A DNA stretch of 24,274 nucleotides from Stx2-converting phage Stx2a F578: the sequence record LC487997. The stretch is one strand, 5' to 3'. This document shows positions 15,001 to 18,000 of the stretch, in pieces (positions within the stretch are counted from its first letter, which is position 1; every line of letters begins with the position of its first letter). A program made the position numbers.

Positions 15001-18000
15001 CGGGGTATTGATTTTCTCAATGGAAATGAGCGCATTGCAGATTGCAGAGCGAAGCATTGCCAACGCCGGGAGGATGTCGGTTAGCGTACTGCGAAATCCT
15101 GCATCGATGGATGACGAAGGCTGGGCACGTGTTGCTAACGGCATGAGTCAGCTTGCAGATTTGGATGTATGGGTAGTCGATGCCTCGCGGTTATCGGTCG
15201 AAGAAATACGCTCAATCGCAGAACGGCACAAACAGGAAAATCCAAACCTCTCACTCATCATGGCGGATTATCTTGGCCTGATTGAGAAGCCGAAAGCAGA
15301 CCGCAACGACCTCGCAATTGCTCACATCTCCGGAAGCCTGAAGGCGATGGCGAAAGACCTGAAAACGCCAGTTATCTCCCTAAGTCAGCTTTCGCGCGAT
15401 GTTGAGAAGCGACCAAATAAACGCCCGACAAACGCAGATTTGCGTGATTCAGGAAGCATTGAACAGGACGCAGACTCAATCATCATGCTCTATCGGGAAG
15501 CGGTATATGACGAGAACAGTAGCGCCGCGCCATTTGCTGAAATCATCGTGACGAAAAACCGTTTTGGCTCACTTGGTACGGTTTACCAGCGGTTCTGTAA
15601 CGGACACTTTGTTGCATGTGACCAGGATGAAGCCAGACAGATTTGCACAGCATCAAATGCACCTGCTGCGCGTGGCAGACGATATGCACAAGGGGCTGAC
15701 GTATGAATAAAAAACAATTAGCTATTCTCGAAAAGGCATGGGATGCACAAATATCATGCGCTTTGAAAGAACAGGCACTACCAATAATCCAGACCAAATC
15801 GAAAATAGCCAGGCAGTTATGCGATGACGGATTCCTGAACGAAGTTGAGATTACGCACCAGATGGTAACGTTCAAAGGGTATGAGATAAATCATCATGGT
15901 ATAGCGGCGTATTGCTCCCATCTTCCTGATGACGTTGACATTGATGAAATGGAAAGGGAGATGAAGCAATGACCATCTACATCACTGAGCTAATAGCAGG
16001 GTTATCGTTACTAATGGTTCTTACTGTATATATTATTAAGTATATTCTTTATGCGAATAAAAAAACTAATTGATCACGATGAGCTTCTGTCAACATTATC
16101 ATATGACTCAGAAACAGGAATATTTAAATGGCTAAAAACAAATTCAGTAGTAAGAGTAAAAGGTAGTATTGCTGGAGGTGTTAGTGGTGGTTATATATGC
16201 ATTAGTATAAATAATGTTTTGTATAAGGCGCATAGACTTGCTTGGTTCTATGTATACAAAAAATGGCCTCCTAAGTTTATTGATCATGTAAATGGGAACA
16301 GACTTGACAATAGGATTTCAAACCTAAGACTGGCAACAGAAGAGCAGAATGCAAGAAACATTGTAGGGAATAGATTAAACACATCCGGTGCAATTGGAGT
16401 GTCTTGGTATAAGCCAACTGGCAGGTGGAAGTCTTATGTTGGTTATAAAAATAAGACAATATCGTTAGGGTATTTCGATAGCAAAGAAGATGCAGCATTC
16501 ATAGCAGCACTAGCAAGAAAGAAACTATATGGAACTTATGCGAGTAAAGCACTTAATTGCGAGCATGAGCTTTTATCTCAATTTAATAATGATGAGGATA
16601 AACTTGCGGAATATCTTAAGGAAAAATCTAAAAGGACTCGAAAGCGTGTTAAAAACAGATAAAGGCCTGCTGGTAATCGCAGGCCTTTTTATTTGGGGGA
16701 GAGTAAATCGTGGCTGAGTTAATTTTCTCTGCATTGAGGATTCTCGGTGCTATGTGGATGGTGGCGACATTCATTGTTGTTGTCAGCAGTTTTGTCCGGT
16801 TGGTAGGCGAAGGTAAAGACCTGGTGGGTGTGCTTTTCGGTAGCATTCTCCTGTGGGTGATTATCGGTGTTGCGCCTGTTGCTGTAGCAAAAATGGCGTG
16901 GCGTTTTGTTAGTTGAGGTGACGATGAAGCAAATATCACTTCAATAAATCGCTTTTAAGGCATCACAATCGCTCTGTGGTGAGGTAAGCACGTGCAAGGC
17001 ATGTCGATAGGCAGCGAGAATGAAAAATGCGTCAGAATGCGTTTGAGGAGGTTTTAAGAAATGAGTACGATAGCTGAGCTTGTCAGGGCTAATTTTCGTG
17101 AAGAGTTGGTGCGTTGGTATCGGTATCGTTCATCGTCCAGTTTGCCGCTTGATGAGTTGTATGAGCATTCACCTGCCGCACGACGCTATCCGCGTGACCG
17201 TGTTCTTCGACGGTTGTTCAAACTCAACAATGAGTTTCAGCGCAACAGAATTATCCGGAGTCTGGATTTTAAGTGAAGGAGTGAGCATGAGCGACCTATC
17301 ATTAACCCAGCCAAAGCTAAAAGAATGTCCGTTTTGCGGCGGTAATGCTCGTCTGTGGGTTGAGGCCGGAATAAATATTGATGTGTGGGGCTATGCAGAA
17401 TGTGACCTCTGTGAAGCCAGGGTGGCATGGGCACCATCAGTTGCTGCGGCTACTGAAAAATGGAACCGGAGAGCAGGAGATGAAGCAAACCTTTCTGCTT
17501 CGCAACGAAGCAATCAGAAATAACGCCATAGACGCCATTCTCTCACTACCCATCGACGACAAGTCACCCCACGAAGTCCACGTTAAAGAACCCAAGCGCA
17601 GCAAAGCGCAGAATGACCGCATGTGGCCGATGCTGAACGATGTTTCGCGTCAGGTGCTATGGCATGGTCAACGGCTGGCGCCGGAAGACTGGAAAGACCT
17701 GTTCACTGCCCTGTGGCTTAAGACCAAAAAACTGGAGCAAAGAAGTGCGCCTGGTATCGACGGTGGCGTTGTCATGCTTGGCGTGCGTACCAGCAAAATG
17801 CGAAAGGCCAGCATGACTGAGCTTATCGAAATCATGTTCTGGTTCGGCTCAGAGCGCAACGTGCGGTGGAGTGATGACTCCCGGCGAGAGTATGAATGGT
17901 CACAACGAAAAGGGAAGGCTGCATGACTATCAAATCAAATACGCCAGCACACGACAAGGACTGCTGGCAAACGCCGCTCTGGCTTTTTGATGCGCTGGAT

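Follow-up and report, generated by a model that had tools for sequence, protein, structure and literature searches.

We analysed a stretch of 24,274 nt from the Stx2-converting phage Stx2a F578 (LC487997; the whole stretch is hereafter called the window), which represents a lambdoid prophage converting for Shiga toxin 2 (Stx2) and extends from the integrase to stxAB. At the boundary of its replication and nin modules, the window carries a gene (16051-16662) that encodes a predicted HNH(His-Me)-AP2 endonuclease of 203 amino acids (aa). This gene lies in a cassette of 662 bp that splits the ninA/tR2 site known from lambda and that is absent from the same site in most related phages. An initial annotation, made from the sequence of the window, had described 15969-16916 as an AT-rich cassette consisting of a free-standing HNH homing endonuclease with its own terminator, immediately downstream of an intein-bearing helicase. 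Here we give the limits of the cassette, the properties of the encoded protein and the distribution of filled and empty sites, and we weigh the possible explanations for this distribution. The coordinates of the features are summarized in Table 1.

The cassette and the ninA/tR2 site

The relatives of the window were compared by megablast against phage and E. coli collections. In TL-2011a and dozens of Stx2a phages, the sequences corresponding to 15300-16000 and 16659-17294 of the window are contiguous, and these alleles represent the empty site. The empty allele reads ...CTAATA(A/G)CAGGCCTGCTGG... (in a longer reading, ATGACCATCTACATCACTGAGCTAATAACAGGCCTGCTGGTAATCGCAGGCCTTTTTATTTGGGGGAGAG...), and the filled allele of the window reads ...CTAATAGCAGG/GTTATCG...(662 bp)...CAGATAA/AGGCCTGCTGG..., in which the slashes denote the junctions. 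The ends of the cassette are ambiguous by 3 bp, AGG being present at both junctions (15998-16000 and 16663-16665). The GC content across 16001-16662 is 0.337, compared with 0.472 and 0.474 in the flanking 700 bp and 0.47 in the whole window, and position 16001 starts the GC minimum among all 662-bp windows of the 24 kb (0.04% of them are equally low). The segment 16001-16662 is a compositionally foreign insertion that ends exactly at the junctions. The sharply AT-rich island reported in the initial annotation was thereby confirmed, and the cassette span given there contracts to these 662 bp, the remainder being backbone.

The insertion falls at codon 10/11 of ninA, directly 5' of the tR2 stem, at the boundary of the replication and nin modules. 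A strong hairpin with a T-run does follow the endonuclease gene directly, at 16661-16694, as had been noted initially. Its stem (16661-16670/16679-16688) has 10 bp with 6 GC pairs and is followed by the T-run to 16694; the terminator scan and the fold gave a free energy of -20.7 kcal/mol and a z score of -4.3. Judged by its sequence, this hairpin is lambda tR2 of the backbone and not a part of the cassette, and its designation as the cassette's own terminator was not retained: the same hairpin is present in the empty alleles, and 16661-16703 is identical in those of TL-2011a, Nil2 and lambda. In the annotation of phage Nil2, this stretch appears as a 'ninA' of 25 codons that contains the 'tR2 terminator'. 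The lambda counterpart is located at 40567-40636, between ren and ninB, and the ninA/tR2 element of the window matches the empty sites, including this one, with 97-100% identity.

The 34-codon open reading frame (ORF) of 15969-16073, which had been assigned to the cassette, exists but is not a gene of the cassette. It is ninA, in which the insert supplies the tail after 10-11 initial codons of the backbone; in this chimeric product (referred to as ninA'), the match to phrog_5907 is confined to residues 1-12. The ATG of ninA' overlaps the stop codon with which the upstream gene ends (ATGA), and its stop codon lies 20 nt past the ATG of the HNH gene in a different frame. The empty alleles encode a NinA of 25-27 aa, MTIYITELITGLLVIAGLFIWGR.., which reads through the tR2 hairpin. 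Homology of the window to SH2026Stx1, HK022 and PA28 begins exactly at 15969, the genes upstream being different, and the homology between the backbones runs from the ninA ATG (15969) to GGGGGAGAG (16703). The constant sequence around the insert is confined to 32 bp at its left and 41 bp at its right, which together form a 73-bp ninA/tR2 linker.

Three further observations concern the reading frame of ninA. Within its first 32 nt, the polymorphisms among the window and sites L001-L079 are mostly synonymous (ACC/ACT/ACA, ATC/ATT, CTA/TTA/CTG), and the protein-changing ones are T10A and one T2A only; this pattern of substitution hints that the tR2-containing micro-ORF is really translated. A 62-codon ORF (16529-16717) overlaps the 3' end of the HNH gene and terminates with the original NinA C-terminus GLLVIAGLFIWGRVNRG. 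It is the orphaned 3' half of ninA kept in frame by the insertion, and is probably not expressed. A third allele, found in HK544 (L008, 2001-2099), Salmonella phage 29485 and PDP110P2 (L009 and L010), has bases 1-32 of ninA followed by a different terminator-like hairpin, GGGGCTATTTACACAGTAGCCCTTTTTT. This allele keeps NinA open and hydrophobic (32 aa) and diverges at the cassette insertion point, which may simply be where the hairpin begins or may reflect an escape from cleavage.

Table 1. Positions of the cassette, the split ninA/tR2 site and the neighbouring genes in the window
Feature	Position	Strand	Basis or remark
Inserted cassette, 662 bp, GC 0.337	16001..16662	+	Junctions from empty versus filled alleles
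HNH-AP2 endonuclease gene, 203 aa	16051..16662	+	Pfam and PHROG matches
Left half of conserved putative target, ninA 5' end, 32 bp	15969..16000	+	Sole upstream sequence common to different backbones
Right half of conserved putative target, tR2 and ribosome-binding stretch GGGGGAGAG	16661..16703	+	Backbone; 41 bp constant
Chimeric ninA' micro-ORF, 34 codons	15969..16073	+	15969-16000 backbone, remainder from cassette
Backbone gene, 89 aa, phrog_2239	15703..15972	+	phrog_2239 match E 2.8e-63; between helicase and ninA
Backbone gene, 68-aa hydrophobic protein, phrog_1165	16710..16916	+	phrog_1165 match E 4e-36
Integrase	55-1389	minus	

The predicted HNH-AP2 endonuclease

The HNH and AP2-like segments noticed initially in the ORF were both recovered by profile searches. 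Residues 58-102 of the product (nt 16222-16356) match the whole HNH_3 profile of Pfam (PF13392) with 56.1 bits (E 2.9e-15), well above the curated cut-off of 24.8 bits, and residues 114-161 (nt 16390-16533) match AP2 (PF00847) with 28.7 bits (E 1.6e-6), which is below the curated cut-off of 33.3 bits. The representative of the 98%-identical cluster of the endonuclease has a precomputed PF00847 match, and the phmmer search matched the AP2 domain of WRI1 (E 0.003). The protein also matches phrog_99, 'HNH endonuclease' (E 1.3e-71). Residues 1-57 form an N-terminal beta region resembling that of I-HmuI, and residues 170-201 form a basic helix at the C-terminus. D78, H79, N91 and N100 align with D74, H75, N87 and N96 of I-HmuI, in which the residues of this D-H...N...N pattern have catalytic and metal-binding roles. 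Across 45 homologues, D78, H79 and N91 show no variation and N100 shows almost none, and all four are intact in the window.

The AlphaFold model of the endonuclease (predicted local distance difference test score 88.9) comprises an N-terminal I-HmuI-like and HNH module, an AP2 fold and the C-terminal helix. In the model, a strand (76-79), a second strand (92-95) and a helix (97-103) make up a predicted HNH ββα-metal fold, and strands 117-120, 125-132 and 135-142 together with helix 145-163 are predicted to form the three-stranded sheet packed on a helix that is typical of the AP2 fold. Foldseek comparisons of the model gave a probability of 1.0 for the AP2 domains of TEM1 (7et5; root-mean-square deviation (rmsd) 1.0 Å, 51 columns) and AtERF1 (1gcc; rmsd 1.3 Å, 50 columns) and also for I-HmuI (1u3e; 109 columns).

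Distribution, conservation and possible homing of the cassette

Empty-site alleles in relatives, whose absence would have spoken against an insertion, are abundant. The 84-bp empty site is present at a coverage of at least 80% in 380 of the 420 matching phage records, including those of lambda, 21, P22, HK620, epsilon34 and many Stx and Salmonella phages, and in 1884 of 5426 complete E. coli genomes. The cassette is present in 18 phage records (including HK022, Stx2 phage 1717, PA28, SH2026Stx1 and phi330), in 126 E. coli genomes at 138 places, and also in 31 IMG/VR contigs. Its presence or absence is a polymorphism at one precise site among related phages, and identical junctions were seen in more than 36 loci, including the 34 fetched ones with a 662-bp insert and two frameshifted copies with 663 bp. 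The surrounding sequences vary from carrier to carrier. Upstream of the cassette there are at least seven unrelated sequences, such as the 89-aa gene of the window, two DnaB-type helicases, the P22-gp12-like helicase of HK022, ren and a toprim primase; downstream there are at least five different genes. Each upstream context was also found with the empty site.

The gene is annotated as a 'homing endonuclease' in PA28 and bears HNH or homing endonuclease labels in HK022 and phage 1717. The element is of an already annotated, known kind, and its insertion site is defined here to the base pair; our full-text literature searches found no published description of a cassette insertion at ninA/tR2. 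A donor lineage was not identifiable, the nearest proteins outside the 98% cluster being metagenomic and at most 50% identical, and blastn for distant relatives of the cassette gave short catalytic-motif matches only. A protein matching at 63% (P0004) is not a donor but belongs to a recombinant that agrees with the window in each of its first 280 nt. This recombinant is on a lambdoid contig of Logan (SRR10380363; L017, 3918-4516), which shows 100% identity with the window in ninA' and in the first 66 codons of HNH and then switches to a different HNH_3 gene (P0004, 171 aa, without an AP2 match) running into rusA. From its sequence, the contig appears to have arisen by recombination of two HNH genes that occupy one site.

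The similarity among the copies of the cassette exceeds that of the DNA next to them. The cassette is 99.5% identical to that of HK022, compared with about 92% in the adjoining shared 68-aa gene, and 100% identical to that of PA28, compared with 94.9% in the downstream region; among HK022, PA28 and the Stx phages, it is 99.4-100% identical, against approximately 92-95% in the adjoining shared backbone. The distribution and the similarity of the cassette are out of step with the backbone, and these sequence comparisons point to recent horizontal spread, although the same picture could result from recombination at a mosaic boundary. The most diverged intact copy, TB354 (97.6%), has nine synonymous and seven nonsynonymous changes, suggesting purifying selection on the gene. 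Some other copies are damaged: the reading frame of MS196-1 and L045 is shifted by +1 in the A-run at codons 4-6, and others are truncated by the insertion sequences (IS) IS100 or IS1203 in decaying prophages. The frameshifted and IS-truncated copies are signs of the life cycle of a homing endonuclease.

A single position near the left junction also differs between the alleles. Nearly all filled sites have G at 15996, compared with at most 19% of the empty ones. An A-to-G change at this position as an immunity mutation associated with the cassette was rejected, because 28 empty sites in IMG/VR have G (at least 120 empty ones have A) and the filled TB354 copy has A. The G is a linked polymorphism only.

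With respect to expression, no sigma-70-like promoter was found on the + strand inside the cassette, the overall number of matches being equal to the shuffled expectation, and an internal promoter was rejected as a candidate. There is no Shine-Dalgarno sequence before the ATG at 16051. The RNA upstream of this ATG is unstructured (z = 0.10), and a terminator-like hairpin in the tail of ninA' supplied by the cassette was rejected on the same value. Because a promoter and a Shine-Dalgarno sequence are lacking and ninA' overlaps its neighbours at both its start and its stop codons, the HNH gene is probably transcribed from pR as the final gene that the early-right transcript contains before tR2, and it is probably translated weakly via coupling to ninA', which starts on the ATGA and ends just inside the HNH gene. 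The gene would then be silent in the lysogen and be expressed upon induction or infection.

We consider it probable that the cassette is a free-standing HNH-AP2 homing-endonuclease gene that targets the conserved 73-bp ninA/tR2 linker. Of the free-standing homing endonuclease insertion proposed in the initial annotation, the HNH(+AP2) gene and its location in a foreign insertion were observed, and cleavage and homing are what we infer from them. The combination of an N-terminal HNH and a C-terminal AP2 domain is that of a described homing-endonuclease family, and AP2 domains have a preference for GC-rich DNA (PMC10448857, citing Magnani 2004). Once a cell has been infected or a prophage induced, the enzyme would introduce a nick or a cut into the intact ninA-tR2 region of a lambdoid genome residing in the same cell. 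The target of a site-specific enzyme that continues to spread would have to be within the 73-bp linker, because the genes neighbouring the cassette differ among the carriers, and the nick or cut would be placed in the empty allele at ...GAGCTAATAACAGG/CCTGCTGG... or near it. The AP2 domain could plausibly read the GC-rich stem of tR2, and, by analogy with I-HmuI, one strand rather than both may be nicked. The break would be repaired from the carrier genome, with the result that the cassette is copied in. In recombineering, flanks of 32-41 bp are short for RecA but workable for the lambdoid recombinases Red, RecT and Erf, and the flanking homologies of 32 and 41 bp would suffice for phage recombinases of these types. 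The carrier genome would itself be immune, since the insertion splits the target site.

The stop codon of the HNH gene (16660-16662) abuts the tR2 stem. Li et al. reported that the efficiency of tR2 decreases from about 90% to less than 10% if translation of an ORF comes to its end 5 bp upstream, and the start of NinA 30 bp upstream of tR2 is documented in the same study (PMC4824070). A ribosome finishing the HNH gene would hinder the hairpin, as a ribosome on ninA would in the empty alleles. Since both alleles would keep a ribosome near the hairpin, the behaviour of tR2 is probably left roughly unchanged by the cassette.

Several points weigh against homing. In the literature searched, we found no cleavage, target-site or gene-conversion data for this protein, its AP2 match stays below the curated cut-off, and we infer both the translational coupling and the effect of the cassette on tR2. 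The occupancy of the site by the cassette is approximately 5% with abundant targets, and filled and empty sites coexist within the same genomes. Among 185,579 species representatives (one genome per species), the cassette lineage occurs only in E. coli, and its presence in other species was rejected; the target is common in Salmonella phages. All copies share a single junction, and one ancient insertion followed by ordinary recombination gives the same pattern. Neither is the filled junction more mosaic than the empty one: 19 flank combinations were counted in 39 filled loci and 17 in 28 empty loci, which is no difference.

The invariant junction, the equal mosaicism of the boundary with and without the cassette and the low occupancy are also what a passive accessory gene ('moron') would leave, if it had entered once by an illegitimate event and had then been shuffled by ordinary recombination at ninA/tR2. 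Its nuclease would have a role other than homing, for example an attack on competitor or host DNA or the stimulation of recombination. The bias toward G at 15996 in the filled sites is expected for one origin with tight linkage, and Casjens and colleagues warn that the HNH genes of lambdoid phages have varied roles (PMC12315714). Nevertheless, we regard a passive gene as rather unlikely, since homing endonucleases with the HNH_3 and AP2 architecture have been described (PMC10448857), the conservation of the cassette consistently exceeds that of the adjoining shared DNA, and purifying selection accompanied by decay in some prophages fits the cycle of a selfish element. In addition, there are no partner genes, no immunity gene and no context of a defence system.

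AP2 domains serve as modules for DNA binding and have been recruited as transcription factors (PMC10448857), and some split copies of the gene leave only an ORF for an 'AP2 domain-containing protein', so the product might be conceived as an inactive relic or as a domesticated DNA-binding protein, in which AP2 would act as a regulator at or near tR2 without any role as a nuclease. The conservation of D78, H79, N91 and N100 across the homologues and their integrity in the window make this very unlikely, and the split copies are products of a frameshift or of damage by IS elements in decaying prophages and do not reflect a conserved architecture. It is more improbable still that the gene encodes a packaging-associated HNH protein (of the HK97 gp74 type, with terminase) or belongs to a transposable or IS-like element. 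HNH proteins do belong to some phage packaging machines (Kala 2014, cited in PMC12315714), but the present gene has replication genes on one side and nin genes on the other within the early-right operon and is not beside terminase, and it is of the HNH_3/I-HmuI-like family with an AP2 domain. An insertion sequence or transposon was rejected, because the Pfam profile search found no transposase domain in the cassette, its ends have no terminal inverted repeats, and there is no target duplication beyond the 3-bp AGG; moreover, 36 of the 36 loci with both junctions resolved share one site. The absence of the cassette from most related phages also argues against a packaging-associated or transposable gene.

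If the cassette is a homing-endonuclease gene, its natural target might be a regulatory linker and not a protein gene, namely the 73-bp ninA/tR2 that connects the replication and nin modules in essentially all lambda-, P22- and Stx-type phages. Breakage exactly at this junction of modules would then spread the cassette and at the same time stimulate the swapping of modules among Stx and other lambdoid phages, and the HK97-type hairpin would represent a cleavage-resistant escape allele; taken as a whole, we consider this extension doubtful. The consequence for annotation is that the terminator, the start of ninA and the 68-aa gene belong to the backbone, and that the foreign DNA amounts to 662 bp only. 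If the enzyme cuts the ninA/tR2 linker, the system would offer a convenient means of studying homing among temperate phages, HK022 with the cassette and lambda with the empty site both being standard laboratory phages. Recombination at a major mosaic joint in Shiga-toxin phages could also be due in part to the cassette.

Prophage setting and comparison with known systems

The order in the window is integrase, cI-type repressor, replication protein O, an intein-bearing DnaB-type helicase, the nin genes (including NinB, Dam, NinG and antirepressors), three tRNAs and stx2A/B, and E. coli O157:H7 strain TT12A matches the 2.2 kb surrounding the cassette with 100% identity. Contrary to the initial description, the cassette does not directly follow the helicase, because the 89-aa gene (15703-15972) lies between them; this gene is also present in the empty allele of TL-2011a and therefore belongs to the backbone, outside the cassette. 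The small membrane-protein ORF of 68 aa (16710-16916) exists as reported. It is a backbone gene and not a part of the cassette, since it follows the empty site directly in TL-2011a and is replaced by other genes in other cassette-bearing phages.

The helicase gene (13313-15706, 797 aa) contains an intein of approximately 340 aa (about 13927-14929) with LAGLIDADG and Hint matches, and intein-less helicase homologues of 458 aa align on both sides of it; RefSeq labels the intein-bearing gene as a pseudogene plus a fragment. In TL-2011a the intein is present and the tR2 site is empty, which makes the intein and the tR2 cassette independent selfish elements. The Rfam matches above the gathering score were the lambda cIII thermoregulator, isrK, the C4 antisense RNA, sRNA-Xcc1 and the three tRNAs upstream of stx2A, with match spans of 7888-7946(-), 18666-18851(+), 19442-19525(+) and 22701-22949(+). 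The stx2A gene is located at 23043-24002. The last 62 nt of the window (24213-24274) repeat 24145-24206 perfectly in inverted orientation after a spacer of 6 nt, and stxB is cut at codon 68. Truncation of stxB as a biological feature was rejected, because the end looks like a fold-back assembly artefact at the end of a contig; stxB is intact (89 aa) in the TT12A chromosome.

The closest known systems are the HNH-AP2 homing endonucleases of phages, cyanobacteria and protists (Magnani et al. 2004) and the 'IPA-HNH' homing endonuclease genes (HEGs; Barth et al. 2023, PMC10448857), which share with the cassette an N-terminal HNH and a C-terminal AP2 domain and also the occurrence as a free-standing, sporadic phage gene at a boundary of genetic exchange. 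The cassette enzyme scores on the canonical HNH_3 profile, whereas the HNH-AP2 proteins of ICP1 do not. The cassette also differs in residing in temperate lambdoid and Stx phages, at a terminator/micro-ORF linker and not beside an essential gene, and its enzyme is a predicted one. I-HmuI of Bacillus phage SPO1, an intron-encoded HNH nicking homing endonuclease (PDB 1u3e), has in common with the cassette enzyme the HNH_3-type ββα-metal core with the aligned D-H...N...N residues and the N-terminal β region. The similarity in sequence is weak (E 0.23) despite the fold probability of 1.0, and I-HmuI differs in being encoded in an intron and in having C-terminal helix-turn-helix DNA-binding modules instead of AP2.

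The free-standing HEGs of T-even phages (SegA-G, MobA-E and I-TevIII) resemble the cassette as AT-rich intergenic genes that are optional between close relatives, and the cassette would be expected to spread as they do, by cleavage of the cassette-less allele with co-conversion of the flanks. However, the T-even HEGs belong to other families in both their nuclease and their DNA-binding parts (GIY-YIG, or HNH combined with a zinc finger), and they usually cut inside a conserved neighbouring protein gene, whereas the neighbours of the cassette vary and the 73-bp linker is constant. Finally, lambda tR2/ninA corresponds to the hairpin and T-run of 16661-16694 and to the first 32 nt of the ORF of 15969-16073. 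The element of the window differs from that of lambda in being split by the 662-bp cassette, as a result of which NinA gains another hydrophobic tail and no longer reads through the hairpin.

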